Shown piece after piece: positions 30,221 through 57,373 of a stretch of 64,000 nt of DNA. Every line of letters starts with the position of its first letter. Positions within the stretch are counted from its first letter, which is position 1. The translations under genes and the position numbers were made by a program. A model generated the notes under the pieces. It had not been told where the DNA came from, ran no database searches, and saw only the letters and a program-made list of their open reading frames with translations. The stretch comes from a virus (lineage: Duplodnaviria > Caudoviricetes): IMG/VR virus record IMGVR_UViG_3300033498_000048, positions 224,001-288,000 of that record; one strand, given 5' to 3'.

Positions 30221-30249
30221 ATTATAAATGTACACACTAACAATGTCAA
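30221..30249 (-). promoter_or_regulatory. consensus sigma70 promoter overlapping the end of repeat array 1
   Basis: TTGACA-N17-TATAAT on the minus strand. Confidence 0.85.
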
Positions 30250-30828
30250 TCAATAAGTTAGCATTAAGTAATTAATAATAGCGTCCAAGTGCTATCTTAT
30301 TGATATTATTAGTGTATGACTACTCCAACTAAATCAACGACTTAGCACTTGCATAGAGTATTAGTTATATAACCGTTCTAAATGCTAACCTATTGATTTT
30401 GTTACATATCACCTAAAATATTAAGAATCAACAAGTTAGCACTTGTAGCCATTAGGTAATTAATAACACCATCCAAGTGCTAAGTCATTGATTTTGTATA
30501 ATTGACAAGAATGTATGGATTTAACCGTAAATCAACAAGATAGCACTTGCAGCTTGGTATTAATTATATAACTGTTGCAAGTGCTAACTTATTGATTTTG
30601 TTATTGGCTATTAAAACAATTAAGAATCAAGTGGTTAGCACCTATTGGTATCAAGTGGTTACTATTGTCAATAAATTGAGTAAAATGACCTAGTAATTAC
30701 AGTTACACTACAAACAATAGGTTAGCACTTGCAGTGTGTTATTAATTACTTAATGGCTACAAGTGCTAACTTATTGTTTTATATACAACACATAAACACA
30801 CCTAAATCAATGACTTAGCACTTGGACG
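30248..30828. repeat. palindromic-element array 1 (4 intact, 1 degenerate, 2 half units)
   Basis: Units AATCAAYRRSTTAGCACTT-N30-AAGTGCTAASYYRTTGATT at 30331, 30426, 30529 and 30712; spacing about 90-105 bp. Confidence 0.95.
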
Positions 30829-30889
30829 GATTAGCTGAAATTGGTAAACAACATAAATACCATTTTAGTTAAATTAGGGGATACAGATT

Positions 30890-31469
30890 ATGTTACTAAG
30901 TTTTAATGAATATTTGTTATCTGAGGCATACATTAACCTGATAGGTGATGACGCTAAAAAACAAAACTACGTTGATGCTGTTTGGAATATGTTACAAATA
31001 TCTTATGAGAGGATTGGTGGAATACATGATTATGGGTTTAAAGATAAACAGAATATGATTACCAATATAAATTTTTGGAAATAGCTACTAAAGATGGTAA
31101 ACCTGTAGCAGTTGCAATGTATAAAGATTCTGGAGGCAGAAAAAATTAGTTGCGTATGGAACTGATAAGTCCACAGTAGGAAAAGCAAAGATAGTTGATA
31201 TTATTAAGGCAGATATGACCAGAAGTTATATGGAACTATCTGGTGCAACTGTGACAATATTAATGAATAACATTGAGTGGAATCAATTGAAAGATTATAC
31301 ATTCACTCCAGAGCAAGCTGAAAAATTGCTAGGAAAGGATATTACACCAATAAGTCAACTACCATCAATTCCATAAGATGCGAAATTAACGTTGGCATTG
31401 TTTGAATATGGGTACATAAGAAAGATTGGTAGTGATTTACATTTTAAAGTTATGTTTGGTAAAATCTAG
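30890..31469 (+). pseudogene. frameshifted gene with capsid-targeting-like N-terminus
   Basis: MLLSFNEYLLSEAY...NFWK, shift at 31079-81, IATKDGKPVAVAMYKDSGGRK, shift at ~31140-45, LVAYGTD...TAA at 31374...YIRKIGSDLHFKVMFG stop at 31469. Confidence 0.75.
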
Positions 31470-31990
31470 CATCTGTCCGATGGTATATTCCAGTGTTTCA
31501 TAAAAGTCTTTAATGATATTTAATACGGGTGAAATGTTACTAAACCTATGGTTTCCACCATTAAATACAATTGTTCTAAATGAATTGCTATATCTGTTGT
31601 TTGTAGTAATTGAATTAATTAACTCATCACCTAGGTTTAGTAATAAAAGACCAATTCCAGTTGATTTAAATTGGTCTTTATAAAATTGTATCTGGTATGC
31701 ACAATTCAAACAAAGTAATATTAGGTTCAATTGCTGGATTTAACATAACAAATGGAATATCTAAAATATTACCTAATCTGTTTGCATAGAATCCCACCCA
31801 TTGAAGTTCCGACCAACAAGTCGGGCTTCATGTCTATTATTGCAGATTCAAGCATTGTTGTAATGTGTTCTATGGAATTAGAATAATCTATTGTAACTCC
31901 ACAAACATCTCCAATAGCCATTAAAGACTTCACTTTATCGCTACTTTGGTCATAAAACGAACCATAGCCATGAATGTACATTATTTTCAC
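31437..31990 (-). pseudogene. split YqiA/UPF0227-like alpha/beta esterase
   Basis: YIHGYGS, GTSMGG elbow, extra G near 31797 (restored reading FYANRLGNILDIPFVMLNPAI), second break, then LLLNLGDE...FNGGNHRF in ORF 31437-31730. Confidence 0.8.
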
Positions 31991-32042
31991 TTAAAACTCG
32001 ATGTTAGTTGACATTTTAACTACCTTTATAATTTAAGTCAAA

Positions 32043-32234
32043 CTAAAAGTTTTTGTCTTGAACTTTAATGTTACCACTTTTTAATATCTGTAAAGCCTTT
32101 GTAGCATCACTAGATGTTTTGAAATGGAACTTTAAATTATCACGTTCAAATTCAATATTATTTTTATATTTCAATTCCCGTTCGGCATCAATAATGTTCC
32201 CTGGATTAGACAAATACAACCAATATTCATACAT
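32043..32234 (-). CDS. hypothetical protein
   Basis: 63-aa ORF with GGAG RBS. Confidence 0.45.
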   Translation of the reverse strand: MYEYWLYLSNPGNIIDAERELKYKNNIEFERDNLKFHFKTSSDATKALQILKSGNIKVQDKNF

Positions 32235-32395
32235 TCATATTACTCCTTTAATTACTACGATTAATTTATCTGTGTATTTTGTTATTTCATTTTGTATTAA
32301 ATATTCCCGCTGTTCGATGTTGGTACATCTTTCACAAATACTTAACACTTTACGAGTTAATTCATTTTTTAATGATTGCAAATATTCAGTATCAT

Positions 32396-32770
32396 TCATA
32401 ACCTTTTACCTTTTAATGCTATATACCTTTCCATGGACTGTTCCATATTCCTAATATGATTGAAGTAATTTAATCTATCCAACCAAGATAGGCTATGTGA
32501 ACTACATAGGAATAGCTCATGGGTGTGTGGGTTATTTCCGCGATATAACACACCAGAAGCTTCTCTAATATAAACTAATTCCATATTAACCGAATTAATA
32601 TCAAACCGAATACAGGGTGAGAACTCACCATTACAAACTCGAATCAAATACAATATGCTTAATATTATATTAGTGTTTTCATCTGAACCAAATAATATTA
32701 TGTTTCTATCCATATATTCAGATATGACTATTTGCATTACAACACACCATCCAAGAAAACAAATTTCCAA
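32396..32770 (-). CDS. hypothetical protein
   Basis: 124-aa ORF. Confidence 0.5.
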   Translation of the reverse strand: MEICFLGWCVVMQIVISEYMDRNIILFGSDENTNIILSILYLIRVCNGEFSPCIRFDINSVNMELVYIREASGVLYRGNNPHTHELFLCSSHSLSWLDRLNYFNHIRNMEQSMERYIALKGKRL

Positions 32771-33195
32771 TTATATTTCTCTTTCTGATGCTTAATCATA
32801 CTATCAACAATTGTATGGCTAAACTTTACACTTCCAGTGTCAATGCCAGTTGTTAAAATTACTAGGATTACATTGTTTGGACGTGCTTGTTCTTGCATAG
32901 ATGCGAACTTTAATCCAAGCATACTAATTGTTTTACCTATAGCATCATATAAAGCTGAAACACCACTTGGGTTATACATCATATCATTCAATATCAGTAT
33001 TGGTGAATCCAATCTAAATACGACCTTTGAATTGAATGTCGCTAGAATATTTGGATGGTTGTTTTTAATGTATGCGTTATATGTGTCAATTACATTTTGT
33101 TTTATTCCAATCATATTATCAGACTCGTCTAATATGAATGTAGTGTATGTAGAATCTTTCATGTTTGTGTTCCTTAATAGTGAAGTCGAAGTCAA
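32737..33195 (-). CDS. degenerate vWA-domain protein
   Basis: TTFILDESDNM (MIDAS-like DxSxS altered), ILTTGIDTGS (TDG.EN.S altered), WKFVFL. Confidence 0.6.
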   Translation of the reverse strand: MTSTSLLRNTNMKDSTYTTFILDESDNMIGIKQNVIDTYNAYIKNNHPNILATFNSKVVFRLDSPILILNDMMYNPSGVSALYDAIGKTISMLGLKFASMQEQARPNNVILVILTTGIDTGSVKFSHTIVDSMIKHQKEKYNWKFVFLDGVL

Positions 33196-33203
33196 TATAA
33201 ATA
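33196..33203 (+). promoter_or_regulatory. T4-type late promoter
   Basis: TATAAATA 24 nt before the 33227 start. Confidence 0.7.
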
Positions 33204-33226
33204 ATTACATTTATAGGTATTAACTT

Positions 33227-33610
33227 ATGATGTTATTTGAACAATTTTTATATGAGAATGTTGGAAGTGTCAATCTGGCAACTGACCTTTTTTATATGGC
33301 TAGAAACTCTGCTACCATTGCACACAAGCAACACTTAAATTCCAAATCTAGGTCAGAACACGAAGCACTCCAAGAATATTATGATGGAATAATCACATTA
33401 ACTGATAGGCTTATGGAATGTTTCATTCAAAGATTTGGTAGAATGTGCGACTCTCCAGAAACGATTGACTTTTTGTCTGTTGAGGGGTTTGCTAAATGGT
33501 TGGAAACATATCGCTACGATATTACGGATGTTCCACATATCCAAACTATTATAGATGAAATGCTCATTTTATGTGATTCGGTATTATATAAGCTTAGATA
33601 CCTAAATTGA
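33227..33610 (+). CDS. ferritin/Dps-like four-helix protein (DUF5856-like) with capsid-targeting-like N-terminus
   Basis: MMLFEQFLYE; AHKQH...SEHEALQEYYD..TD.L.E, YKLRYL. Confidence 0.75.
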   Translation: MMLFEQFLYENVGSVNLATDLFYMARNSATIAHKQHLNSKSRSEHEALQEYYDGIITLTDRLMECFIQRFGRMCDSPETIDFLSVEGFAKWLETYRYDITDVPHIQTIIDEMLILCDSVLYKLRYLN

Positions 33611-33980
33611 GCCTATAAGCTAATTCATTATGCAATACCTTTTCAGTGTGCTGATTCAATGTTTGGGTTTCTAAAATCGCATTGATGTGTGATTCTTCTA
33701 AGTCCTTTAATATTACATATTTAAGGGGTGAGTTTCCAGTTTTACCATACGTTCCCCATACGAAATATTCACGGATTTTATCGTGTGAGTCTGAATTAAA
33801 TATATCAACGATTTTTGGCTTTTCATTGTTTACTGAACTTCTAATATAATCATTGCCACCGTCAATATAATACGACTCGCCATTTTTATCTACATGGGAT
33901 GCCACATCATGGCGATGGTGACTAATTAATCTAGTTCCATCTGGAGTAATCATTACAGTTAATAGTTTGTGTTTTTTCAT
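33594..33980 (-). CDS. conserved phage protein (TPDGT.L.S.HRHD family)
   Basis: ITPDGTRLISHHRHD, YIDGGNDY, WGTYGKTG. Confidence 0.7.
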   Translation of the reverse strand: MKKHKLLTVMITPDGTRLISHHRHDVASHVDKNGESYYIDGGNDYIRSSVNNEKPKIVDIFNSDSHDKIREYFVWGTYGKTGNSPLKYVILKDLEESHINAILETQTLNQHTEKVLHNELAYRLNLGI

Positions 33981-34033
33981 ATTCTTAATCCACTCGTATT
34001 TTTATAAATTATTGTATATGCTTAGATACCTAC

Positions 34034-34351
34034 TCAAGTTAGGTTTTTCTTTCTATATTGCAATTCATCAACGAATACCTTTTTAATATGTTGTGGTAAT
34101 GTTGTTTGTTTTTTTAAAACATCAATGATGTTTGATTCTTCCATATTCATTAATTGAGTGTATTTAGTTGGTACGATTCCATATCTTCCAATTTCACCAC
34201 AAGAACACCACTTAAACCACTCTCGAATTTTACCGTGCGAGTTGGTATCAAAAACATCAATTAATGTAGCTGGAAAATCATTATCGTCAATGTGCCTAAC
34301 CATTTCATGTCGATGTTGACTAATTAACCTAGTACCATCTGGAGTAATCAT
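34034..34351 (-). CDS. paralog of 33594-33980 with an internal deletion
   Basis: MITPDGTRLISQHRHE...SHGKIREWFKW; lacks the DGGNDY segment. Confidence 0.6.
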   Translation of the reverse strand: MITPDGTRLISQHRHEMVRHIDDNDFPATLIDVFDTNSHGKIREWFKWCSCGEIGRYGIVPTKYTQLMNMEESNIIDVLKKQTTLPQHIKKVFVDELQYRKKNLT

Positions 34352-34422
34352 TGTAAAAACCTTGTTCCCTTTAAGTAAGTGATTTGTATATATTACAACA
34401 TTTACAATGTTGTTGTCAATAG

Positions 34423-34839
34423 ATGTATAAATACTATTTTAAAACAAGGTATGGAACTGCGATGACAACAAAACAAAAACCTAAATTGACAATAGAAGAA
34501 GTTGCTAAATTAGCACGGAATATTAATCGTATGTATAGTGCTTCAATCAATGATGAAGTGCCAGAAATATGGGAACGTAGCACTGAGGCTGAAAAGGAAA
34601 GTATGATTCGGGGTGTAAAGTTTCATTTAGCCAATGATTTTACTCCAGAAGAATCACACATGATATGGGTTAAACAAAAAATTACAGATGGATGGTGTTA
34701 TGATATGAATTATGATGCTGTATTAAAATTGAGTCCACATTTAATTCCATACAACCAATTACCAATTGAGCAAAGAGTTAAAGACCACATATTCAGAGGA
34801 TTAGTAATTGGATTAAAACAATTTATTGACCTCGATTGA
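34423..34839 (+). CDS. RyR-domain protein
   Basis: SH..W...K..DGW.Y....D...K.SPHLIPYNQLP..Q..KD; TATAAATA at 34426-33 implies a start at 34462 (MTTKQK). Confidence 0.8.
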   Translation: MYKYYFKTRYGTAMTTKQKPKLTIEEVAKLARNINRMYSASINDEVPEIWERSTEAEKESMIRGVKFHLANDFTPEESHMIWVKQKITDGWCYDMNYDAVLKLSPHLIPYNQLPIEQRVKDHIFRGLVIGLKQFIDLD

Positions 34840-34852
34840 ATGGTAAAATATA

Positions 34853-35353
34853 ATGCTTGACACAATATCAGAAACTATAGGAACTGCGAGTGGAATAACA
34901 CAAGAAGATATTGAAAAACATAGTAAAGATATGTCTGTATTCCACAAGGAAGTAACATCACAATTAAGACAGGAACAATATGAAGAAGATTATGATTATG
35001 TTCGTGATAATTTAAAGACTGCAATTGGATATGGAATGGATATGATTCCAGCAATAATTAGTTTAGCTAAAGATTCGGAGAATGCTAGATGTTATGAAGT
35101 TGCTGCTGGATTGTTAAAATCTTTATCTGAAATCAATAAGGACTTATTAGCAGTATCTAAAGTTAATGCTCCAGCTAAACAAACAGCTATAGGGTCTGAA
35201 TTGGTAGGAATAGATAATTCCACAACACACAACCAAACTAACGTATTCGTGGGTACATCTGAGGACGTATTCGCAAAGATATTTCAACAAAGAAATTTTG
35301 AAAAGGTGATAGATAATAATGATAATGAGCAATGTCCAACATCAAGTATTTGA
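34853..35353 (+). CDS. gp16: terminase small subunit
   Basis: DYDYVRDNL, A.DSENARCYEVAAGLLKSL.E.NKDLL, TNVFVGTSED. Confidence 0.8.
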   Translation: MLDTISETIGTASGITQEDIEKHSKDMSVFHKEVTSQLRQEQYEEDYDYVRDNLKTAIGYGMDMIPAIISLAKDSENARCYEVAAGLLKSLSEINKDLLAVSKVNAPAKQTAIGSELVGIDNSTTHNQTNVFVGTSEDVFAKIFQQRNFEKVIDNNDNEQCPTSSI

Positions 35354-36209
35354 ACGAATTGAATTTAAGATTTGTATCTTAATTGTATTCGCAATATGTT
35401 CGATACTTGTTAGTTACAATGTGGTACTAGGTGAAATTGAAGTAATGAATACATTTGCTACTACACAATGGCAAAAAGATTTCTTTAAAGGTGTATTCAC
35501 TGCAATCGCTATAGTAACTCCAATAATAATTCCAGCAACAGTAATATTGAAAAAAGCTGGATTAAGTAGGTGGAAGTCAGTTGGAATTACATTATCAATA
35601 TTATTAACAATATATGAATTTGTAGCAATAGACCATATTGTACTTAGAGCTGGTATGGATAATAGTAACACAACTAAAGAAAAATCTTTGACCCAAGCCA
35701 CACTTAGCTCAAATTTAACACTATTGAAAACTACTGGACAATCAATACAAGTTAATGATAAACACACATCATTAGTATCATTACAGGATAATTTAACTAA
35801 AGAAAAAACGTCATTGAAATCTTGTGGAAGGTTTAACCAATCTTGTAAGAGAATCCACAAATCAAAAATAGTAGAACTAACGAGTCAAATAAGTGCTAGG
35901 CAAGATGAAAACAAGCATATTGATGAAACTTCAACATTACAATTACAGCTTTTAAATGCTAATAATCAACTATTGGAAATATCAAAGAAACAAGATGAAA
36001 AAGTCGTAGCTGCCTCTGGATTTAGAATGTTATATCCAAATGACCCAGATAAAGCATTATTTGTCCAACTTATTTTTTCACACTTCGTGGCACTATTGAT
36101 TACAATATTTAATACACTATCACTATTGGTTGTTGGAGGTGTCGCAGCATCATTAGGTGTTTTGAATCACAAAAAGACAGATAAAATCATAGTTACAGGT
36201 AGAACGTAA
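35319..36209 (+). CDS. multi-pass membrane coiled-coil protein
   Basis: Three N-terminal hydrophobic helices, a coiled coil and a C-terminal TM. Confidence 0.6.
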   Translation: MIMSNVQHQVFERIEFKICILIVFAICSILVSYNVVLGEIEVMNTFATTQWQKDFFKGVFTAIAIVTPIIIPATVILKKAGLSRWKSVGITLSILLTIYEFVAIDHIVLRAGMDNSNTTKEKSLTQATLSSNLTLLKTTGQSIQVNDKHTSLVSLQDNLTKEKTSLKSCGRFNQSCKRIHKSKIVELTSQISARQDENKHIDETSTLQLQLLNANNQLLEISKKQDEKVVAASGFRMLYPNDPDKALFVQLIFSHFVALLITIFNTLSLLVVGGVAASLGVLNHKKTDKIIVTGRT

Positions 36210-36239
36210 CCTAATAAAATGGTACTGGATGATATATCA

Positions 36240-36551
36240 TCAATACCATCCAGTAATTGTTTTAGAGGTGTATAATTTTACATCACAACCTTCTGGTAAT
36301 GACATACCTATAAATTGAGTCTTGTTGAATGTGAATAAGATGTTGTTGAGTGTGTTTCTAATAGTATTGTCCCTATAACACAAGTAACCTATAGGTTTAC
36401 CGTTAGATTCTTTGGAATATAAATATCCTTTCCTGATTGTGTATAAGACATTAATCAACTCTTTATCATTACTAGCATACACTCTACCATTATAAACATT
36501 ATAGAATTTATGATTTTTATCCAACATCTTATCAATTCGCATAGTCGCCAC
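36240..36551 (-). CDS. hypothetical protein
   Basis: 103-aa ORF. Confidence 0.5.
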   Translation of the reverse strand: MATMRIDKMLDKNHKFYNVYNGRVYASNDKELINVLYTIRKGYLYSKESNGKPIGYLCYRDNTIRNTLNNILFTFNKTQFIGMSLPEGCDVKLYTSKTITGWY

Positions 36552-36557
36552 CTAAAA

Positions 36558-36815
36558 TTATCTTCTTGATTTACTCAACCTAATCAATCGTTGTTGTAAT
36601 AATGTTCCGCGTTCAACTGGTTTTTTGGTTAGTAAACATACTGTTCCAACCTCATCAATTTTGTATATGGTATAGTCTGGAGTAAAATAATGTCTATTGT
36701 ACCCCTCCTTTGGAATTAAATCACCAACACAAACTGCTTTAAACTCAACGCCTTCACATTGTAAAATTCTCATTAGTGTTTCCAGTTGTTTTAAGATGTT
36801 GGGTATTATAAACAA
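36558..36815 (-). CDS. hypothetical protein
   Basis: 85-aa ORF. Confidence 0.45.
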   Translation of the reverse strand: MFIIPNILKQLETLMRILQCEGVEFKAVCVGDLIPKEGYNRHYFTPDYTIYKIDEVGTVCLLTKKPVERGTLLQQRLIRLSKSRR

Positions 36816-38062
36816 GTTTGTATAGTGTTGTCAATGGTTAATTCTGATAATAATTTTTCTTTCATAATGTGGAGTGTCAGTCTACGTCCACCGTCCCTAG
36901 TCTCAATGTAAAAACTAATCAGTGGCATATTATCAGAGGCATTTTTAAAAAATATTCTAGGGTTCTTTGACTTGATGTTATCATATTCAGCAATAATATT
37001 TAATTGATTCAATTTAATAAACAGATTCTTATATAGATATACACCAAAATTATTATCGTTAATGTGTACTTGGATTGTGTTTTTACAATTTCTAGTAGCA
37101 GCATTAATAATACCATTCGCTAATCCATAATGCCGTTCATAAGGGTTTAATGAATTAAATTTTGTCACTATTTCATTAAATAATTGAGCATACCATGTAA
37201 CTGTTTTTTCGTATTCGGTCATAATATCTTCTAAATAGATTCCAAATGAGTTCACTACTTTATGTGCAAAGATTTCGGACGTTCCAGCTTGTTCTAAGTT
37301 TTTGGTATTTCCGCATTTCAAACTAATATATAACTTTCTTGAATTGGACGACAATTCAATATCAGCTTTTATGTTTTTGTTTCCATTATAACCTATTGTT
37401 TTTATTTCAACATTGTTATCGTTATAAAATTGTGATATGTAACTTGTTTGTGCAAATTGGATTATAGCATTATATATTCCAGTAAGAATTACATGATTAC
37501 CAATATTCACTAAGTTACATATTGCGATTTTATTCAATTTAACTTCACTAGATAAATGGAACTCGTTATATTGTAGTGTACAATCATCAACTTGGTTATA
37601 TTCCAATATTAATTGTTTTATAGTTTCAATTGTCAAGTTATACTTTAATAACTTAGCTATCATTGCAATTGTTAATAGTCCCTCGGCAATTTCACCTTTA
37701 TTATATTGTCTTCCATTAATACTTGGTTTTCTAATACTTGATATTAAAACATATCCAATATCAACATCATAACAAATCGAAACATAACATCTCCCATTAA
37801 TTAATACAACATCACGACATATTATTTTAAATGTGTTTCCTTTTAATACATCTGTAATATGATTACCAAACTCATCAACCATTTTAGTGTCACATTCAAA
37901 CTCAAAAACCGTTTCGTTTATATTGCACAACTCAATGTAATAATCATATATGCTTACATTTGTGTCCCTATACTTTTTTGTGGCAGATAATCTAGCCATA
38001 TCAACTCCTTTTATTAATAACTTCACTGGACTTATAGTAGTATCTAATATAGATATTGTCAA
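36806..38062 (-). CDS. hypothetical protein, possible PD-(D/E)XK nuclease fold
   Basis: NKGEIAEG and KADIEL......YISLK motifs; likely start MARL at 37999 after AAGGAG. Confidence 0.5.
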   Translation of the reverse strand: MTISILDTTISPVKLLIKGVDMARLSATKKYRDTNVSIYDYYIELCNINETVFEFECDTKMVDEFGNHITDVLKGNTFKIICRDVVLINGRCYVSICYDVDIGYVLISSIRKPSINGRQYNKGEIAEGLLTIAMIAKLLKYNLTIETIKQLILEYNQVDDCTLQYNEFHLSSEVKLNKIAICNLVNIGNHVILTGIYNAIIQFAQTSYISQFYNDNNVEIKTIGYNGNKNIKADIELSSNSRKLYISLKCGNTKNLEQAGTSEIFAHKVVNSFGIYLEDIMTEYEKTVTWYAQLFNEIVTKFNSLNPYERHYGLANGIINAATRNCKNTIQVHINDNNFGVYLYKNLFIKLNQLNIIAEYDNIKSKNPRIFFKNASDNMPLISFYIETRDGGRRLTLHIMKEKLLSELTIDNTIQTCL

Positions 38063-38105
38063 TTAATAAATAGATATTAGCAATTAAATAATAAATTAGG
38101 AGATA

Positions 38106-38897
38106 ATGGTGAAACTACCAATAGTAGAACACAGATTACATAGTATAACAGTACCATCATCTAAACAGGAAGTTAAGTTTAGGGCGTTTAGAGTTAAAGA
38201 ACATAAGTTGTTACTAGAAGCATTAGAAATGCAAGATGGACAATCATTAATTAATACAATTGGAGTCATTGTAGAATCATGTACTGTTCCACAATTAAAT
38301 GTTAATACATTATCAATGTACGATATGGATTATATCTTTTTACACATTAGAGCTAAAAGTTTAGGTGAGATAGTTCCTGTAGAATATACTTGCATGGCTC
38401 AAACAAAGAAATTAGTGAAACAAGCTCCAGATTATACTGGAGAACCAATACATGAAACTGGAGCTTGCAATTCTAAAGTCATTGTAAATTTAGACTTAAA
38501 TGCTGTTGATGTTTATTATCCAATTGATTATGATAAAAAACGATTGATAATGATTAATGATACTATTGGAATTAAATTGAAATGTCCATCATTTTATCAA
38601 TTTAAAGAATTGGATAAGATTGACAATGTTAAATCATTATTTTCGGTAACTGAACGATTCATTTATGCTTGTGTTGATAGTATATTCGATGGAGATAACG
38701 TTTCTGTTCCAGATATTGATTTCAATTTCAATGATATGGTTGAGTTTTTAGAAAATCTACCAACCGATATTATAGATGAAATCAATTTGTTTTTTGATGA
38801 AATGCCATACACTGCATTAAAAATGAATATTGAATGTCCATATTGCAAAAACAAAGGAATGATAGAGGTTAAGGAACTTGAAGATTTTTTCGTTTAA
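38106..38897 (+). CDS. gp26: baseplate hub subunit
   Basis: VPSSKQEVKFRAFRVKEHKLLL, DMDYIFLHIRAKSLGE, CPYC. Confidence 0.9.
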   Translation: MVKLPIVEHRLHSITVPSSKQEVKFRAFRVKEHKLLLEALEMQDGQSLINTIGVIVESCTVPQLNVNTLSMYDMDYIFLHIRAKSLGEIVPVEYTCMAQTKKLVKQAPDYTGEPIHETGACNSKVIVNLDLNAVDVYYPIDYDKKRLIMINDTIGIKLKCPSFYQFKELDKIDNVKSLFSVTERFIYACVDSIFDGDNVSVPDIDFNFNDMVEFLENLPTDIIDEINLFFDEMPYTALKMNIECPYCKNKGMIEVKELEDFFV

Positions 38898-39082: not shown

Positions 39083-39092
39083 GTATAAATCA

Positions 39093-44258: not shown

Positions 44259-44267
44259 ATTTTATTT

Positions 44268-48741: not shown

Positions 48742-48822
48742 TTTTAATGTTCACTCCCATTGATAATTCGTATTAAACGTAGACAAGTAATAATCTATTT
48801 GCATTATATTCTCCATAGGTTA

Positions 48823-50217
48823 TTAACTTAAAATTGTACCTTGTTTGATTCCTAGTTCAATGGCTAACACTTCATCAAGAGTATTGGCTTTGTTTTTATC
48901 GGGTCTTGATTCATCCCATCTAGGATGTAATAGTCCATATCCATCCTTTGACACTGATATACCAGAACATTCAACTTGTAATATGGTATCAATTAAGGAA
49001 TCCATTTCATTAGTTATTTGTGTCATTAATTTTTCATTAATACCTGCTGCTGCTGCAACTAATTTACCATCTTCAGTTTCAACTATAACAGAACTAATAA
49101 CGTGTTCATTTTTAGTTCCCTTTGTTCCATATTTAAAACCTTTGATTTTCATATCAACAACAAAATCAAGTTTGAATTTAATTTGATACGATGGTTTTCC
49201 ATCTTTCCAAGCACCTGACAACCCTTTTAATATTGTACCTTCTTTCCCACTAGAAATCTTGTCTTGGAAATCAGCATTAGCTTCTTCCAACGATTTAACA
49301 ACTTTTGAGTCAACTAATTTCAACTTAGGTGAATTTACTCTTGTTACAATGTCAGACAAAAGTTCAAATCGTTCTGAATAAGGTGTGGAACTATATGTCT
49401 TGTCATATTCGTCTAAAGTTATAATATCCCAACAAACATATACGATTTTAGATTGGGCATCTGAAATAGACATTCCATATTCTAATTCAAATTCAGAAAT
49501 CTCTTTTACAACTGAAATTCCAGATGTAATCTTTTTATTAATTGAAATCACACTTGCAATTATTCCATTTGAAGTGTAACGTGAAATCCCTTCGATTATC
49601 AATTCACCATTAAGCACGATGTTATCAACAAACTTTGTTAAAAAATCGAATTGATTGCCTATTAGGGTTTCTTCGCCTCCACGACTTTCAATCAATACAT
49701 CGTTAGGTGTTACAATACAATTTCCATATCGTCCATCTATTTTCTCTTGACTGACAGCTCCTTGTTTGTCGTTTTTAATAAGGTTTAGAATCTTTTTAAC
49801 ATTGTATGGAATTGCACCCATATATGGAGTTTCTTCTATTAAATCTTTCCAAACCTTATTTACTATTGATACACCAACACCACATTTCAAATCACCTTTA
49901 ATAATCAATTCCAGCACCTGAGCATCGTCTGAACTAACAGATGCTAATAGTGTGTGAAGATGTGCTAGTGCTTCATTTCCAGTCTTTTGTCTTGAACTTA
50001 AAACATTTAATTCAGACATAGCATATTTTAATGAAATTGGATTAGTTAAGGTTCCAGCAACATATTCTGGAACCTTTCTAATATAAAACTTAATCCGTGG
50101 ACTTAAGGCTAAATAAACAACTTCTTTAAGTAGCTCATTATTAACTTCAAGCTGAACCCTAGCAAGTTTTTTCTTAATTGAACTTATCGACTTTAACTCT
50201 TTAAATATTTGTAACAT
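48823..50217 (-). CDS. gp30: ATP-dependent DNA ligase
   Basis: QEKIDGRY (motif I), LNGELI, EGTILK, W..GK...QIK.K, LLHPRW...R.DK..AN. Confidence 0.97.
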   Translation of the reverse strand: MLQIFKELKSISSIKKKLARVQLEVNNELLKEVVYLALSPRIKFYIRKVPEYVAGTLTNPISLKYAMSELNVLSSRQKTGNEALAHLHTLLASVSSDDAQVLELIIKGDLKCGVGVSIVNKVWKDLIEETPYMGAIPYNVKKILNLIKNDKQGAVSQEKIDGRYGNCIVTPNDVLIESRGGEETLIGNQFDFLTKFVDNIVLNGELIIEGISRYTSNGIIASVISINKKITSGISVVKEISEFELEYGMSISDAQSKIVYVCWDIITLDEYDKTYSSTPYSERFELLSDIVTRVNSPKLKLVDSKVVKSLEEANADFQDKISSGKEGTILKGLSGAWKDGKPSYQIKFKLDFVVDMKIKGFKYGTKGTKNEHVISSVIVETEDGKLVAAAAGINEKLMTQITNEMDSLIDTILQVECSGISVSKDGYGLLHPRWDESRPDKNKANTLDEVLAIELGIKQGTILS

Positions 50218-50373
50218 ATTATTATCCTTTATTGTAAAATCTAACTCTTTTGTGTGAGTCTAACCATCTACATACAAACTTCCAGAAATACCAGATGTAT
50301 GCTTCTTTAATTTCCTGCATATTTACTTCGACAAAGAAGATGAATGTTTGTTACTGTTTTCCATTATGATTAC

Positions 50374-50745
50374 CTAATTTAAATGTTGTTGTTGTGTTAA
50401 TAAGATTATTTCACATTTGATGACTTTATATCTTAGGCTCGTAAACATATCAACGGATTGCCTAGCCAACTTAGCAGTTTGACTAATCGACTCTAATATT
50501 ACATTACCACTAAGCTTGTGGACTACACAATATAAATTTCTAGCTAATATGGTTGGAGTTTTGTGTTGGTTGTTCCATGATTTATATTCAATTGGTATGA
50601 ATAATTGTAATCCAACCTTAACAACATTGCTCGTATGTGCAAAACACGTTTTTTTATGTTTTGATATTGAATTTAATATTGGGTATGAAACTTCATTCAA
50701 TGCACAATAACACTGTATAGGGTCTATATATTGTTTTAATTCCAT
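50374..50745 (-). CDS. hypothetical early protein
   Basis: Start revised to MELKQ at 50745 because the listed start (50808) lies in the -35 box. Confidence 0.5.
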   Translation of the reverse strand: MELKQYIDPIQCYCALNEVSYPILNSISKHKKTCFAHTSNVVKVGLQLFIPIEYKSWNNQHKTPTILARNLYCVVHKLSGNVILESISQTAKLARQSVDMFTSLRYKVIKCEIILLTQQQHLN

Positions 50746-50779
50746 TTCAAATCCTAAAATACTATTATGTAAATGGTGT

Positions 50780-50808
50780 ATTATAATAGCACAATGTACA
50801 AATGTCAA
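50780..50808 (-). promoter_or_regulatory. consensus sigma70 promoter just downstream of repeat array 2
   Basis: TTGACA-N17-TATAAT on the minus strand. Confidence 0.85.
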
Positions 50809-50838
50809 AATATATTTTTAACACATCAAGTCGTGGAA

Positions 50839-51127
50839 GAATCAATAAGTTAGCCCTTACAGGTGTTGGTTAATTAGTAAACGGTTCCAAGTGCTAGCTT
50901 GTTGATATTGTTAATGTTTATTATACTCAATTATATCAATAAGTTAGCACTTGGAACGTGGTATTAGATATATAACCGATGCAAGTGCTAAGTCATTGAT
51001 TCTTAATAATTGACAGTAAAAATTTAGCACTTATGGAGTGGCATTAGTTACATAACTGTTCCAAGTGCTAACCTGTTGACATTATTAGGACACAATCATT
51101 ACCAGTTAAATCAATAAGTTATAGCAT
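50839..51127. repeat. palindromic-element array 2 (3 units plus a half)
   Basis: 30-nt cores at 50859-50888, 50953-50982 and 51033-51062. Confidence 0.95.
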
Positions 51128-51144
51128 TGTAGCAAGTATTTGGT

Positions 51145-51744
51145 TCACATATTCCAAGCATCTTTATTAGTACCACCTTTCCATCGTTGGGTTGGAAGAA
51201 ATGCAACTATTTCAAATGATTCATCTGGAATATTAACAAACTTTGATTTTATGTGGTCGAGTCTATATGAATGTAGTGCGTGTTCAAAGAATTTAACTTC
51301 TGACATTTTTCTTAAAATTGACCACGATAATGATTTTTTTGCTTTTAGGTTTATGATAGCCATTAATGCCTTGGCTCTAATGACTGGAGCTAAATAATGG
51401 AAATTTAGTCCAACCATAATAGGTACACCTTGTTTAGATGTGTATGCTCCACATGGAATAACTAAAGGTAATGTGTCGTATATGTTTAGTTTGTCTTTCC
51501 ATTTTGGGTCATATTGAAACAAAACCATATCCCCTGGATTAAACTTATTAGTAACTAAATTACTATCTTGTAATAGCCTAGGTAAACGAACACTCTTATA
51601 GTTTTTTGATATGAAATTCCTAAACCAGTCCATCGACTCATCCGTATTTCTTTTCTGTTTAGTTGGATTCAAATCAAAAAACTTTTGTTCTAACCGTTTA
51701 ACTAAATCAATTTCTGTTCCTGTTGTGTTTTTTATATTTGCCAT
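51145..51744 (-). CDS. gp2: DNA end protector protein
   Basis: SMDWF, PG.M..F.YDPK.KDKL..YD.LPLVI, GLNFHYL.P, HSY...H.KS, FLPT.R. Confidence 0.93.
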   Translation of the reverse strand: MANIKNTTGTEIDLVKRLEQKFFDLNPTKQKRNTDESMDWFRNFISKNYKSVRLPRLLQDSNLVTNKFNPGDMVLFQYDPKWKDKLNIYDTLPLVIPCGAYTSKQGVPIMVGLNFHYLAPVIRAKALMAIINLKAKKSLSWSILRKMSEVKFFEHALHSYRLDHIKSKFVNIPDESFEIVAFLPTQRWKGGTNKDAWNM

Positions 51745-51758
51745 GATGTTAAAAAATG

Positions 51759-51786
51759 TTGACGTTTAAAAAAATGTGTGTATACT
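51759..51786 (+). promoter_or_regulatory. sigma70-type promoter
   Basis: TTGACG-N16-TATACT with TGTG extension, ahead of 51828. Confidence 0.6.
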
Positions 51787-51827
51787 GAAGTCCACAATTA
51801 AGTAAACCACATAACAGAAGATAAATC

Positions 51828-52124
51828 ATGTACTATAAATTTACAAATCCTACTAAAAAACACACATTGATAATTGAAGCTAAATCTAAACTACAAGCCA
51901 TGGCAAAAGCTGAATCACATGGCGAGGTATTTGAATCAACAAGTGAAGTGTGTGATTATGATTGTAGTTCTACTGACACAATAGGTTTTGAATATGTGGA
52001 TGGATTTATTGAAGAAGTCCATTCTAACAAACCAAAATTGCGTGATTTTATAATAAAAGGTTATTGTGAAACTGTATCACTAATTCCATTAAACGGTACA
52101 CGCATATACACTGAAAAACTTTAA
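51828..52124 (+). CDS. hypothetical early protein
   Basis: 98-aa ORF behind the promoter. Confidence 0.6.
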   Translation: MYYKFTNPTKKHTLIIEAKSKLQAMAKAESHGEVFESTSEVCDYDCSSTDTIGFEYVDGFIEEVHSNKPKLRDFIIKGYCETVSLIPLNGTRIYTEKL

Positions 52125-52175
52125 TTGGTCCAATAAAATAGGGAGCTACTATATTGACTTAGTAGCTCCCATTTA

Positions 52176-53132
52176 TTATATTTCAATTGGACCAACAACT
52201 TCTGGTTTATACATACTACCTTCTGGTCCATAAGCAACAATATCATAAACCTTGTCTTTTGTTCCATAAAATTCCCAATATGCCGAGCTATCGGGAACAA
52301 TTTTATGTGTTTTTCCATCTGGTAATTCTCGAATCAATACTACACTTGCTGGACTGTATGGGTGTGTACTATCTTTTGCAATTCCAGATAACATCTCATT
52401 ATATGCTGATAGCGTGTATATGGTATTAACACAACTTAATCCCACGTCAAAATCGAACATAACCACGTCTTTAAACAACGAAGTTGAATTAGCTATAGTA
52501 GCATCAAGACTCTTACCAATATGGCAATAGGGGCGATTTAACGCAGCTATTTGTGCAATATTGATGGTATTGTCTTCAATCAATATTCCATTTAGGTAAA
52601 CTGAAAACTTATTAGTTGTTGGATTTAACGTAAGAGCAATGTGATACCATGTGTTGTCTAATAAATTCACAATTGAGGTAATTGATAAATCACCATAAAT
52701 TAAATTTGTTAGTCTACAAAATATTGTATTATAATTGGTGTCTTTAATTATATCAATTGAGTTTTGTATTCCATTGGAATCTGATGTCAATGAAAATAAA
52801 CAATATTGATAATCCCTAGATGATATGTCTTTACTATTAAACCAAAACATGATAGTAATTCCAGTTGAATTGATGTTATTTAACAAATTATTAGTTGGAA
52901 TTGTTAAATAACTATTAATAGATTTTTCTAAAAATAATCCACCGAATTGTGTATTCGCATTGCTTTTAGGAATTGTAGTTAATGTTGCGTCATGTCCGTT
53001 AAAACCTTCATCCATGATATTAGTTGATAAGTCCCCTTGCAATCGGTAAAAAACAACAGGCTTATTAACCAAAACCTGTTGTTTTACTGGACTACAATTC
53101 CTAGCAAAAGGACTTTGTGTTAGTTGTATCAT
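52176..53132 (-). CDS. LamG/ConA-like lectin domain protein (probable virion appendage)
   Basis: VFYRL, ITIMFWF, NTWYHIALT...SVYLNG, HIGKS, FKDV..FD. Confidence 0.8.
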   Translation of the reverse strand: MIQLTQSPFARNCSPVKQQVLVNKPVVFYRLQGDLSTNIMDEGFNGHDATLTTIPKSNANTQFGGLFLEKSINSYLTIPTNNLLNNINSTGITIMFWFNSKDISSRDYQYCLFSLTSDSNGIQNSIDIIKDTNYNTIFCRLTNLIYGDLSITSIVNLLDNTWYHIALTLNPTTNKFSVYLNGILIEDNTINIAQIAALNRPYCHIGKSLDATIANSTSLFKDVVMFDFDVGLSCVNTIYTLSAYNEMLSGIAKDSTHPYSPASVVLIRELPDGKTHKIVPDSSAYWEFYGTKDKVYDIVAYGPEGSMYKPEVVGPIEI

Positions 53133-53609
53133 TTAAACATCTTTCACGAAATCTTCTATCCAATCTAGTCCTAAGCTTGGATAATTCACTTCTATATTCT
53201 TTTTAATTAAACTTAAAGTTTCTCCTGATTTAGTTAATTTTTTAACATCCTTTTTTGCAGCATTTAATAACTTATAGTTTACTCCACCATTGTAGCTGTT
53301 TACAATTTCTTTTAATGATTGTTCCATTCTATTTTTTATAGATTTAGTACAGTTTTTTTGGTGTTTAATAATTGTTTGTTGTAGTGATTTTAGTTGTGTT
53401 ATACACATATCATCAACGCGATTTGGATATGTTAAAAAATATCCAAATCGCCCTTGCTCACTATCAAATAAAAATAACACCAATTCAACCGATGTTAGTG
53501 TTTCAGTGTTTAGGATTGATATTATGGAACGGCATGACATTCCTGTTTTTATATAAGTTTTCATGTAACCCAAGGATTCGATTAATTGTGGAACTAGACT
53601 TACATCCAA
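53133..53609 (-). CDS. hypothetical protein, paralog of 54293-54604
   Basis: IL.TETL...EL..FLFD...G.F.YFL..P...DD..I.QLK.LQQT.IK.Q.NCT shared with 54293-54604. Confidence 0.65.
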   Translation of the reverse strand: MDVSLVPQLIESLGYMKTYIKTGMSCRSIISILNTETLTSVELVLFLFDSEQGRFGYFLTYPNRVDDMCITQLKSLQQTIIKHQKNCTKSIKNRMEQSLKEIVNSYNGGVNYKLLNAAKKDVKKLTKSGETLSLIKKNIEVNYPSLGLDWIEDFVKDV

Positions 53610-53644
53610 TATAAACCATGTAAGTCTTTAGTTGAGTTATTGTG

Positions 53645-53941
53645 TTATTTAATTACCGTTGATATAGCTCGCTCAAAAGCTGATTTGAAATTATCAAAAT
53701 TGTCTAAAAACTCTTTAGTTTTACCTTTATCTGGCTTTCCATTTGAATAGAAATGTAATGAATCAGATGATGGAATACTATCGAATATGTCAACTTGGTT
53801 AATTGATGTTAATGATATTAAGTAATCAAAAAACGGTTGTACCATATCGTCCGTAAGTTGTGAATCTATTTTATCCCAACTGTTACGAATCCAATTAGAA
53901 ATGTGGTCAAAGTCTGATAGTTGTGGATTATCTGTTGTCAT
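53645..53941 (-). CDS. hypothetical protein
   Basis: 98-aa ORF with AGGA RBS. Confidence 0.55.
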   Translation of the reverse strand: MTTDNPQLSDFDHISNWIRNSWDKIDSQLTDDMVQPFFDYLISLTSINQVDIFDSIPSSDSLHFYSNGKPDKGKTKEFLDNFDNFKSAFERAISTVIK

Positions 53942-54234
53942 GTTTAAGTCCTCATTGTTTATTATTAAAGCGTGTGTTGTATCGCAGTTAATTTTGAAAT
54001 ATCATAGTCGATATAATCTTTGTTACTTCCAAGGTAAAGTTTACTCACTCCAGCACCTATCAACCTCGCATACACTTTTAATACAGATTTTTCGTCTCCG
54101 TTTGTTGGGATATACACGTTTAACCATGAGTTTTTCAATCACAAGATTTCCAATAGAAGGTTGGTGATTGATAACAACTGTGTCATTGCGTTTCATAATA
54201 AATTCTCACTTTGTGTCGATTTTCGATGGAACAA

Positions 54235-54263
54235 ATTATAATGATATTCAAAACTAAAGTCAA
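54235..54263 (-). promoter_or_regulatory. sigma70 promoter
   Basis: TTGACT-N17-TATAAT on the minus strand. Confidence 0.75.
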
Positions 54264-54292
54264 ACTATTTATTATAAACAAGTCTAACAAAA

Positions 54293-54604
54293 TTAGGTGT
54301 TATAGTTAGATTCAATTTCAGCTAAGGCTTTTTTCATTTGCCGTTTAATTGCAGGAGTGCAATTTGGTTGATATTTGATAACAGTTTGTTGTAATACTTT
54401 TAATTGTTCTATTACTTTGTCATCGGTAATATCAGGATTCACTAAAAAGTATTCAAATTGTCCTGAAGCATCATCAAATAAGAATGAATCCAACTCACCT
54501 GTTGATAAAGTTTCAGATTTTAGTATTGAATTTATCTTTTCAACTGACATTCCAGGTTTTATAATGGTTTCAGATTCACTTAAGAATTGTCCAAATGTTT
54601 TCAT
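54293..54604 (-). CDS. putative internal head protein
   Basis: MKTFGQFLSE closely resembles the T4 IP capsid-targeting sequence MKTYQEFIAE. Confidence 0.65.
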   Translation of the reverse strand: MKTFGQFLSESETIIKPGMSVEKINSILKSETLSTGELDSFLFDDASGQFEYFLVNPDITDDKVIEQLKVLQQTVIKYQPNCTPAIKRQMKKALAEIESNYNT

Positions 54605-54613
54605 GTTTATTCC

Positions 54614-55315
54614 TTATTTGTTATAAAATGGGTTATCGTCAATTTCACTTAAAGGGTTTTCTTTAAGCATACTTTTAACCATGTCTAATATCTTTGTATC
54701 CAAATGGTTTTTTAACCAAGGGTTAGATGTCATATTTATAGACGAGTCAACATTCATATCCATCAACTTTTGTATTTTTTTATTGGCTTCTTGTCCCAAT
54801 TCGTTAATGATAACATCGTCTAACTTTTTAACACCTTGATAAATTGCATTAGAAATATCATTAAACGAATCAGCTCGTGATAACCAAGACATTCTTCTTG
54901 AAAATTCACGTTCAGCTTTCCCAGTTTCAGTGTTAATAGACCATTGTGGAACTGAACCATTATTTATTCTACGCAATATTTCAACTCGGTCTTTTTGAAC
55001 TTTAACAGCGTTTTCCCATATTGTTGGATAATCACGTCTTAATTCAGATATATCATCTTGTTGGACTAATGCAATAATAGCTTGCATTTTATCGAAAATT
55101 ATTTTATCAATTTCAACCTTTTCAGGTGATTCTTGATATATGTCTTGTTTTATTTTATTGATTTTTTTATGTAAACTGGGATTACCTCCAGCTAAGATGT
55201 TTCCATCATGGTCAACATATATTGACCCACCTCTGCCCATTCGTTTCCAAGTTCCACCAGATAATGCCTTTTGGTCAGCCTCTGACAAAACCATAAAATC
55301 TTTAATGCTTATCAT
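54614..55315 (-). CDS. putative internal head protein
   Basis: MISIKDFMVLSEAD; W..MGRGGSIYVD.DGNILAG motif. Confidence 0.55.
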   Translation of the reverse strand: MISIKDFMVLSEADQKALSGGTWKRMGRGGSIYVDHDGNILAGGNPSLHKKINKIKQDIYQESPEKVEIDKIIFDKMQAIIALVQQDDISELRRDYPTIWENAVKVQKDRVEILRRINNGSVPQWSINTETGKAEREFSRRMSWLSRADSFNDISNAIYQGVKKLDDVIINELGQEANKKIQKLMDMNVDSSINMTSNPWLKNHLDTKILDMVKSMLKENPLSEIDDNPFYNK

Positions 55316-55450
55316 ATTAATTTATCCTATATTATGGTTGGTTTTGTTGTATTTATTATATTTGAATACTAGGCTATAGAGTCATTTATTACTAATGGTC
55401 CAGTTTCTTTTCGTATCATCATGGACATTAGATTCAACTTAGATACGACT

Positions 55451-55524
55451 CATCTTATGTCCAGTGTGTTATATTAAGTTTAGTATAAATACAAGAAATC
55501 AAATAACACACTGGACATAAGATG
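55451..55524 (+). promoter_or_regulatory. translational-sequestration hairpin with an internal late promoter
   Basis: Perfect 22-bp inverted repeat 55451-55472 / 55503-55524 covering the ATG at 55522; TATAAATA at 55484-55491 in the loop. Confidence 0.85.
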
Positions 55525-56325
55525 GCAAAATTAATAAACGACAAGTATTACACTCCATTAGAATTGGCTCAATATTGTATAGATAAAACGCATCAAATTA
55601 TAGGGAATAAAAATATCACTGAATATATTGAACCATCAGCTGGAAATGGGTCATTTAGTTTATTATTACCTGATTGTATTGCATTTGATATTGAACCTGA
55701 GCATCCATCAATTATCAAACAAGACTTTTTAATGATTGATATACCACATAAATCTGGACGATGTGTTATTGGGAATCCTCCATTTGGAAAAAACAATTTA
55801 TTATATAGGAGGTTTTGTGATAAAAGCTTTAATATTGCTGATTATGTTGCTTACATTTTACCTATCAGTCAATATAATAACAGAAATCTAATTTACAAAT
55901 TTGATTTAATTTATAGTGAAAAGCTTAATCAGGTGTTGTTTAGTTCGGCTAAACAAGTTCCAGTTTGTTTTAACATTTATAAAAGACCATTAAGTGGAAT
56001 TTACAATAAACGTCCTAAATTATACCACAAATATATTAAGTTTATATATAAAACTAGGCACTCGAACGAAATCATCAATGATTTTGATGTGATAATATGT
56101 GCATGGGGGAGTAATGTTGGTAAACCAATAACAGATTTAAATGCTCCTAGATGGACATCAAGTATGTACATTAAATTTATTGATGGACTAGATACTTCAA
56201 TTAAAAGCAAACTAATAGAATCAATATCAAATGTTGATTGGAAACTCAAATATAGTATGCCTAGAAATGGGTCAATATCATATTGGCATATTTATAATTA
56301 TCTAAATGAAATTGTTAAGGAGTAA
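55522..56325 (+). CDS. N6-adenine DNA methyltransferase-like protein
   Basis: DKYYTP, IEPSAGNGSF (SAM motif I), FDIEP, DFL, IGNPPFG (motif IV). Confidence 0.85.
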   Translation: MAKLINDKYYTPLELAQYCIDKTHQIIGNKNITEYIEPSAGNGSFSLLLPDCIAFDIEPEHPSIIKQDFLMIDIPHKSGRCVIGNPPFGKNNLLYRRFCDKSFNIADYVAYILPISQYNNRNLIYKFDLIYSEKLNQVLFSSAKQVPVCFNIYKRPLSGIYNKRPKLYHKYIKFIYKTRHSNEIINDFDVIICAWGSNVGKPITDLNAPRWTSSMYIKFIDGLDTSIKSKLIESISNVDWKLKYSMPRNGSISYWHIYNYLNEIVKE

Positions 56326-56331
56326 CATTAT

Positions 56332-56820
56332 ATGGCTAAAAGAAAAACAGCACAAGATAAAGAAGCTGAATACCAAAACAACCCTTGGATGTTTAATAAT
56401 GAACCGTTCAATGATTGCAAACAATATGCTGGATTTGTTTATGAAATAATAGACTTAGAAACCAGTAAACGCTATATTGGAAAAAAGTTTTTTTGGAGTA
56501 TGAAACGGGTTCCAGGTAGAAAAAACCGAATCACTGTAGAATCTACATGGAGAGAATATTATAGTTCCAGTGTTGAGATTAAGGCACTGGTTAAAGAATT
56601 TGGAAAAGCTAGATTTAAGCGAACCATATTATCAATACACGAATTAGAAAGGGATGTTAATTATGAAGAAACAAGGCAATTATATACTAAAAAGGTATTA
56701 TCAGAAGTGAATGGTGATGGTGAATTGGTTTATTATAATGGAAACATTGAAGGTAAACGATTTTCTAATCTTTGTATTGGAATAGAAAATCGTAGTTTAT
56801 TTGCAATGGAAGCAATTTAA
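56332..56820 (+). CDS. GIY-YIG family endonuclease
   Basis: GFVYEI......RYIGKK, ES.W..YYSS, YYNGNI. Confidence 0.85.
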   Translation: MAKRKTAQDKEAEYQNNPWMFNNEPFNDCKQYAGFVYEIIDLETSKRYIGKKFFWSMKRVPGRKNRITVESTWREYYSSSVEIKALVKEFGKARFKRTILSIHELERDVNYEETRQLYTKKVLSEVNGDGELVYYNGNIEGKRFSNLCIGIENRSLFAMEAI

Positions 56821-56834
56821 TAAAGTTTTTATTA

Positions 56835-57071
56835 TTAGTCCACAATAAAAGATATGTTATCATAGCCACTAAAATGGTGTAACTTTGGAAACACCGAAAT
56901 GGTAAACCAACAACCAAACTCAAAGTAGTCGTTCATCATTTTGTCTTTAGAACACCCAAATTTATTCTTTACATTAACACCAGTTGATAAATCCAAACTC
57001 GTAGAGGTAAATTCGCACCCATTACTAGAAGTGTGTTGGATAACAATTATTGATTTTATAGATGTGGACAT
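56835..57071 (-). CDS. hypothetical early protein
   Basis: 78 aa with AAGGA RBS, behind the promoter at 57104-57132. Confidence 0.55.
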   Translation of the reverse strand: MSTSIKSIIVIQHTSSNGCEFTSTSLDLSTGVNVKNKFGCSKDKMMNDYFEFGCWFTISVFPKLHHFSGYDNISFIVD

Positions 57072-57103
57072 AATGATTCCTTTAAGTTCTCAATGATGGT
57101 TAT

Positions 57104-57132
57104 ACTATAATGTGTTGGAGTTATAATGTCAA
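57104..57132 (-). promoter_or_regulatory. sigma70 promoter overlapping the end of repeat array 3
   Basis: TTGACA-N17-TATAGT on the minus strand. Confidence 0.75.
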
Positions 57133-57373
57133 TCAATATGTTAGCATTTGCAACGGTTAAGTAACTAACACATTCATTGATTGTGTTGTCATAAATACTT
57201 GCTGTAATAGAATCAATGAGTTAGCACTTGGAGCTATTACATAATTAATAACAATGTCCAAGTGCTAACTCATTGATAGTTATACTATTCACATCAATTA
57301 TGAAAAATCAATGGGTTAGCACTTGGAACTATCATATAATTACTAACACGCTGCAAGTGCTAACTTATTGATA
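57131..57373. repeat. palindromic-element array 3 (2 intact plus 1 degenerate unit)
   Basis: 30-nt cores at 57230-57259 and 57325-57354. Confidence 0.95.

Follow-up and report, generated by a model that had tools for sequence, protein, structure and literature searches.

Arrays of a 66-bp inverted repeat beside sigma70-type early promoters in a T4-like phage genome

In our study, we analysed a window of 64,000 nucleotides of phage DNA (bases 224001-288000 of the complete 305,782-bp virus record IMGVR_UViG_3300033498_000048, which has terminal repeats and 31% GC) and found that it contained arrays of a 66-bp inverted repeat, several of which lie beside strong sigma70-type promoters. The explanation that we tentatively favour, with close to even confidence, is that the arrays are protein-docking boundary modules and that the sigma70 early promoters form modules of their own, recruited beside them. 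On the evidence of the gp2, gp4, tail tube, DNA ligase and RNA ligase genes present in the window this uncultured phage is T4-like; the closest cultured match of gp4 was ~57%. A gp55-like late sigma gene, adjoining gp47, was the sole sigma-family gene found in the phage, and the TTGACA/TATAAT promoters are therefore probably read by the host polymerase and thus early, as judged from T4 biology (PMC2988021).

The repeat was found genome-wide as 218 arms, 82 exact 66-bp units and 43 intergenic clusters, and no arm above threshold occurred in shuffled DNA. For the promoter link, a promoter matrix was trained on 38 array-free promoters, and genes with 50-200 bp of room behind an array were compared with other comparable starts. 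A strong sigma70 promoter was present at 14/28 starts behind an array vs 27/161 other starts (p=0.0003, ~3-fold), and at 14/28 vs 16/102 within 5 kb of arrays. The ~3-fold excess persisted among high-confidence genes, near arrays (the 5-kb comparison), among small minus-strand genes and in tandem gene contexts (10/17 starts behind arrays vs 13/73), with p values of 0.0002-0.017 over six controls and three thresholds. The preliminary description of the window, made from its letters alone, had called for such a test across the genome and had made its proposal depend on other arrays being promoter-linked as well; the association was indeed found beyond the window. Array-linked promoters in this genome always fire away from the array, and an array was present within 100 bp upstream of 15/71 strong promoters and within 150 bp downstream of none.

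The link was moderate. No promoter was present at 30/45 array-flanked starts (14 of these 30 had <50 bp of room), a strong promoter was found at 15/43 clusters and was missing from 28/43, five clusters lay between convergent genes, and 56/71 strong promoters were array-free. The position weight matrix score was 19.5 for the array-linked promoters and 19.6 for the free ones; the linked promoters are thus as consensus-like as the free ones and do not need an activator, which argues against the earlier suggestion that an array-bound factor activates them. Among the scanned genes behind array-linked promoters, 12/13 had no named family and one encoded a peptide deformylase. Late promoters were rejected as a general link (just 2/27), and so were the units as promoters themselves (best internal score <9 vs 14+ for real promoters; core orientation toward the adjacent genes mixed).

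The three minus-strand promoters reported for the window were all exact. Promoter 1 (TTGACA-17-TATAAT, 30221-30249) has a perfect -35 and -10 and a score of 20.8, promoter 2 (50780-50808) has the same boxes and spacing, and promoter 3 (TTGACA-17-TATAGT, 57104-57132) differs in the -10. All three have the sigma70-type pattern (TTGACA-16..18-TATAAT) and lie in non-coding gaps, with start codons 30-35 bp past the -10. They serve, on the minus strand, an open reading frame of 74 amino acids (29967-30191; no family), one of 123 amino acids upstream of the DNA ligase gene (50374-50745) and one of 78 amino acids (56835-57071), respectively. The last belongs to an unnamed widespread family of at least 45 distant clusters (31-45%), had no Pfam or PHROG match and had its best homolog in an unrelated phage. 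Such promoters numbered 6 in the window vs 0.53 expected, and 3/6 (1054, 36805, 44230) were without an array; 12 exact repeat units were present vs 0 expected, and the pairing involved 3/7 clusters and 3/10 strong promoters.

The preliminary description had placed the three arrays on or directly upstream of these promoters, which is correct for array 1 (30249-30824; 12 arms) and array 3 (57132-57372; an orphan arm at 57132-57150 followed by two intact 66-bp units), whereas array 2 (50841-51080; three units, of which the final one has a decayed left arm), behind the gene of the gp2 DNA end protector, begins 33 bp upstream of the -35 of promoter 2. The reported overlap of arm and -35 box at arrays 1 and 3 is real but amounts to one base of the 19-bp arm, at promoter 1 and at promoter 3. 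The 14-mer common to both junctions was confirmed at 30242-30255 and 57125-57138, with no other copy in the genome. Seven of its bases are arm consensus, five more are -35 box, and the last two (TTGACATT) also occur in 15/56 array-free promoters. Since 12 of the 14 bases are dictated in this way and the triple tie among 13 offsets has p ~0.09, the identical junction is weak evidence alone. The likeness of the two junctions reaches 23/24 bases, so that one of them may have been copied.

Genome-wide, the -35 starts 0, 0, 0, 9, 9, 10, 23, 23, 30, 33, 33, 43 or 91 bp outside the outward-facing arm. These varying offsets, the absence of a promoter from two thirds of the array-flanked starts and the separation of array 1 from its promoter in a relative (below) do not support the idea that the arrays are fixed mobile cassettes of array plus promoter. 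The TTGACA hexamers noticed in array spacers on the plus strand (30502-30507, a type-2 spacer; 51010-51015; 58248-58253; 59365-59370) were present, each 10 bp outside an arm and, as described, without a -10 box. TTGAC was found 9-11 bp outside 31/218 arms vs 0.0018 per base in other intergenic DNA, and its copies shared flanks on both sides, which indicates one spacer type spread by copying and not independent sites. Twenty-eight of the 31 copies had no -10 (scores <=8.2), and the three with a -10, at array edges, were strong promoters. The spacer may be what is left of a promoter junction after the next unit took the place of its -10, or it may be a ready-made -35 that seeds edge promoters. 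Promoters for another sigma were rejected, as no fixed downstream box was found and gp55 is the only phage sigma. A second tail-to-tail spacer type, with ATTGA 5 bp outside the arm, was observed at 24 arms and also in relative L101 (1600-1780); its presence there suggests that TAATTG may be a third recognised block.

A relative (ENA ERZ925373; 58-89% protein identity) spans the loci of arrays 1 and 2. Its gp2 gene is followed by a single unit, whose inner spacing is again 30 bp, by TTGACT-17-TATAAT at +16, by an extra gene of 82 amino acids, by the ortholog of 50374-50745 (59%) and by the ligase gene. The array-promoter link thus persists at this one orthologous locus, whereas the spacing does not (+16 vs +33), and the promoter-side arm is without its outer block. 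At the array-1 locus, two intact units with a period of 95 bp end 17 bp before the ortholog of 29967-30191 (58%), which stands directly behind them. This junction had no promoter; TTGACA-17-TACAAT was present 78 bp upstream of the array, firing through it. Promoter 1, with its -35 junction, is therefore specific to one lineage; an array can be parted from its promoter, and transcription can pass through two units. The upstream promoter of the relative aligns with an array-free promoter-like site of the window (18226-18255, plus strand, TTGACT-18-TATACT), at the other end of an inverted 12-kb block.

Compared with L101, the window is inverted over this block of ~12 kb (18175-30250), of which one end lies at array 1 and the other (~18200) is without an array here. 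A stretch of ~7.8 kb between gp2 and gp4 (51745-59544), containing arrays 3-5, a kinase gene, a GIY-YIG nuclease gene and a methyltransferase-like gene, was absent from two relatives, in which gp4 and gp2 are near neighbours. One end each of the inversion and of the 7.8-kb insertion was found at an array and the other ends were not. The relative also keeps the unit length and the arms (L101 1610-1770, L018 2256-2321), not the central TAATTA, which is replaced by ATATTG or CAACAC.

Each unit has a fixed, polar core of 28 bp that is flanked by two 19-bp arms in inverted orientation, with head-to-head gaps of 28 bp in 82/90 cases, tail-to-tail gaps mostly of 26-30 bp and a period of 94-96 bp; all arms except one lie outside called genes. 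The arms of one unit were not more complementary than random pairs (arm-arm identity 1329 vs 1332+-9 shuffled), the core was less palindromic than chance (264 vs 388+-19), real units folded worse than chimeras (-23.0 vs -24.4+-0.4 kcal/mol), wobble was without strand bias (G-U 62, A-C 49) and unit polarity was random (42/40). The absence of arm covariation and wobble bias, the poor folding and the random polarity fit double-stranded protein sites and not RNA. An RNA hairpin was rejected on covariation, folding and the scarcity of T tails (a T run after just 12/164 arms), and an Rfam family because only weak generic hairpin matches, far below the gathering cut-off, were obtained. The IHF consensus WATCAANNNNTTR (PMC9452768) was exact in 164/218 arms and had <=1 mismatch in 209/218, as a consensus match only. 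Three quarters of all matches to it in the genome were repeat arms, most of the variation in the arms fell in N4, and in relatives it was found in 5/8 arms and, with a different N4, in 4/4 arms of L101.

No similar repeat was found in public phage records, and 80 distant gp4 loci contained no repeat units. Pattern scans of viral and metagenome contigs gave unrelated chance hairpins only (L001, L002, L019, L020), and no published description of the element was found in a literature search of incomplete coverage. The unrelated GC-rich phage contig L001 was seen to carry a 7-bp repeat of TTAGCAC type, in inverted runs, within two of its intergenic gaps (3630-3740, 9743-9850), and a further family of inverted repeats was present at 766-859 and 10494-10613.

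IHF sites occur at promoters (Mu Pe, lambda pL) and in REP/BIME-1 elements. In the explanation that we favour, the arrays would be double-stranded docking modules at the borders of transcription units in plastic, accessory-gene regions of the phage; the outer half of each arm would bind host IHF and the invariant inner block a second protein, and the arrays would have a role of their own, perhaps DNA bending by IHF together with a second factor. Recombination or conversion between arrays may spread units and spacers. A sigma70 early promoter would be recruited just outside an array edge when the next accessory gene needs early expression of its own, and a spacer-borne TTGACA 10 bp outside an arm could become such a promoter by gaining a -10, as at the three array edges mentioned above. 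An intact bound unit would hinder a promoter in contact with it, which would leave contact promoters only beside broken units; promoters 9-43 bp out would be compatible with intact units, which may tune them. If the arrays regulate at all, they most likely hinder or tune rather than activate. The earlier proposal of a factor binding the arrays thus survives in part: protein binding is the best reading of the IHF consensus and of the lack of hairpin selection, but neither activation nor a MotA-like logic is supported.

Several points weigh against this explanation. The invariant inner block GCACTT lies outside the IHF consensus, is not explained by the IHF match and would need another reader. 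No gene for IHF/HU, HrcA, HTH_3, an integrase, a resolvase or a Y1 transposase was found in the complete phage genome with working controls. Our own gene caller (86% coding) may have inflated the control set of starts, and the informative loci were only two, both from one relative. Offsets <=43 bp favour a single face of the helix (Rayleigh test at 10.5 bp: p 0.02 with duplicates collapsed, 0.02 with intact units only), and this weak rhythm is a hint of some function beyond adjacency; p rises to 0.09 once the off-phase +16 of the relative is included, and the offsets of +10 and +30-33 mirror the spacer layout of the arrays themselves. Among the four promoters touching or overlapping an arm, 0/4 abut an intact unit, vs 10/10 further out (p 0.001) and 34/47 promoter-less edges (p 0.005), a pattern that is post hoc, with n=4, one promoter weak and two possibly of shared origin. 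The broken units are that of array 1 (a 10-bp core deletion in the promoter-proximal unit, 30249-30304), the orphan arm of array 3 and two more elsewhere. The pattern matches, and hints at, occlusion by a bound intact unit; adjacent promoters may be repressed, as the preliminary description had put forward, or occluded, with this one post hoc sign in favour.

It is rather unlikely that the arrays are dedicated to transcription control, through a bound factor by which the neighbouring early promoters are repressed, delayed or activated. The 3-fold promoter enrichment, the link kept at one orthologous locus and the position of offsets 0-43 on one helical face, as in class I activator sites (PMC4132738), speak for it. 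The 30/45 array-flanked starts and 28/43 clusters without a strong promoter, the five convergent clusters and the 56/71 strong promoters without an array do not fit, nor do linked promoters that are no weaker than free ones. In the relative, the +16 offset is off phase (p to 0.09) and the promoter at the array-1 locus precedes the array; the spacer layout by itself can give rise to offsets of 10 and 30-33. A joint reading, in which the arrays form a genome-wide, helically phased nucleoprotein system of host IHF and a phage or host protein that times or damps a subset of the strongest early promoters, with the promoters either placed on a suitable side of the helix or released by breakage of the adjoining unit, is likewise doubtful; no phage regulatory architecture of this phased type was described in the literature searched.

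That the arrays act as a barrier, stopping or damping incoming transcription by an RNA hairpin or a protein roadblock so that a fresh promoter is needed behind them, is distinctly unlikely. The tandem contexts (10/17 vs 13/73) agree with it, each unit can fold at ~-23 kcal/mol, and the PeSLs of phages PST and nt-1 likewise place a stem-loop just upstream of a promoter (PMC4122927). Neither covariation nor strand-biased wobble was found, however, and a T run follows just 12/164 arms; moreover, 14 genes <50 bp behind an array have no promoter and hence need read-through, and the relative transcribes through two units.

A selfish or neutral repeat of REPIN or MITE type, spreading into promoter-bearing gaps that tolerate insertion upstream of the -35, is improbable, although units were gained or lost between relatives, their orientation was random, tandem doublets of inverted arms were formed and promoter position was free to vary. 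One such case is the single unit with one decayed arm between the RNA ligase and HslV-like genes (28593-28658; no promoter), which a closer relative (L103; 91% nucleotide identity) keeps before HslV and L101 lacks. The 66-bp length, the 30-bp inner spacing and the 95-bp period were kept in the relative despite the drifted core, which points to selection on geometry, and the arrays take up ~7 kb in the genome of a lytic phage. Neither a Y1 transposase nor an integrase or resolvase was found in the phage; the absence of the REP/REPIN (RAYT) transposase PF01797 from the complete genome was established with positive controls, and a host-encoded enzyme is still conceivable. Sites of attC, loxP/dif or serine-recombinase type were rejected, as no recombinase was found and the relative has a different central hexamer.

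IHF sites are common at replication origins, and 9/43 clusters were at divergent junctions vs 36/482 gene pairs. Iteron-like arrays might thus load an initiator as start sites of replication or recombination, with the adjacent promoter giving an R-loop primer, as T4 origins use promoter-made R-loops and T4 oriE contains evenly spaced repeats (PMC3016281). We consider this very improbable: 43 clusters are far above the few origins of T4, most arrays have no promoter, no initiator was found, and the repeats of oriE, which are direct and 12 nt long, have no proven role (PMC3016281). A decoy for host HrcA, a heat-shock repressor that would be soaked up by the inner block as a CIRCE half-site, is hardly credible, since in spite of the 8/9 match (PMC1676014) and a spacing of 30 that equals 9 plus two turns, none of the sites has a spacer of 9 bp, 177 copies carry T and 5 carry C at the ninth position, and the outer block, the polar core and the promoter link are left unexplained.

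The element was compared with known systems. PeSL and PmSL cassettes (RB49, phi1, PST, nt-1; PMC2839356, PMC4122927) are likewise intergenic repeats in plastic regions before small ORFans, tied to near-perfect sigma70 promoters, rearrangement next to the arrays being seen here at one end each of the inversion and the insertion, and in PST and nt-1 an inverted repeat is found upstream of the promoter. The layout is therefore PeSL-like, as had been proposed, but two defining PeSL features, the constant promoter and the stable stem-loop, are missing. In PeSLs the promoter is constant within the repeat, whereas here it lies outside, at about one cluster in three (15/43) and at offsets of 0-91 bp. 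The arrays are tandem rows, with a 95-bp period, of a long and fixed unit of 66 bp with arms of IHF-type consensus, and instead of a stable stem-loop or terminator they appear to have neither hairpin selection nor a terminator tail.

T4 middle promoters share with the arrays a phage DNA motif adjoining the -35 region of host-polymerase promoters; in them a MotA box takes the place of the -35, at a constant distance of 12+-1 bp from the -10 (PMC2988021). The MotA-box analogy of the preliminary description fails, as the full -35 is intact at the array promoters, the array motif stands outside it at variable distance, and just 3 MotA-type matches were found in the genome. Searches of the phage for MotA and AsiA gave no match, but the controls of both searches were silent too. 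REP/BIME-1 elements also form intergenic rows of alternating inverted units; here neither the REP hairpin nor a RAYT transposase was found. The arms share with IHF sites the consensus given above (PMC9452768; three quarters of arms, variation mostly in N4), and differ from IHF sites elsewhere in that a lytic phage has >200 of them, every one joined to a second block that does not vary. With CIRCE/HrcA sites (PMC1676014) they have in common the 8/9 half-site match, the inverted pair and the nearness to sigma70-type promoters, but CIRCE has a 9-bp spacer and lies over the start, whereas here the spacer is 30 bp (0 sites with 9) and the sites lie in tandem arrays upstream of the promoter.

If bound arrays occlude or phase-tune promoters, they would form a new layer of transcription control in a phage, using a host nucleoid protein; to our knowledge, no means of tuning single early promoters is known in T4-like phages that lack MotA/AsiA. 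On a weaker reading, a dispersed repeat with a ready-made -35 can seed promoters for shuffled accessory genes, as an alternative to PeSL cassettes. The surprising object is the repeat family itself, to which this study adds a measured, moderate promoter link, a geometry that is not conserved and a hint of occlusion. The array-promoter junctions are short enough for synthesis and for study in E. coli without the phage.

The remaining arrays of the window were without an adjacent strong promoter. Array 4 (58075-58434) contained four units, with divergent genes 16 and 34 bp away and a strong promoter on neither side. Arrays 5 (59261-59491, behind the head completion gene gp4) and 6 (63406-63576, behind the tail tube gene) lie between convergent genes and have no outward promoter. 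Flanked by array 3 (4 bp away) and array 4 (16 bp away), a minus-strand gene (57376-58059) encodes a protein kinase of 227 amino acids resembling the T7 gp0.7 family; it has no sigma70 promoter of its own and may be reached by read-through from the late gp4 transcript. To the right of array 1 (30890-31470, plus strand), apparently one gene is broken into short frames (64 amino acids, 53 amino acids and pieces). An HslV-like peptidase gene followed by a BCS1-type AAA ATPase gene was found on the minus strand at 26820-28573, beside the RNA ligase gene, and this order was the same in relatives.

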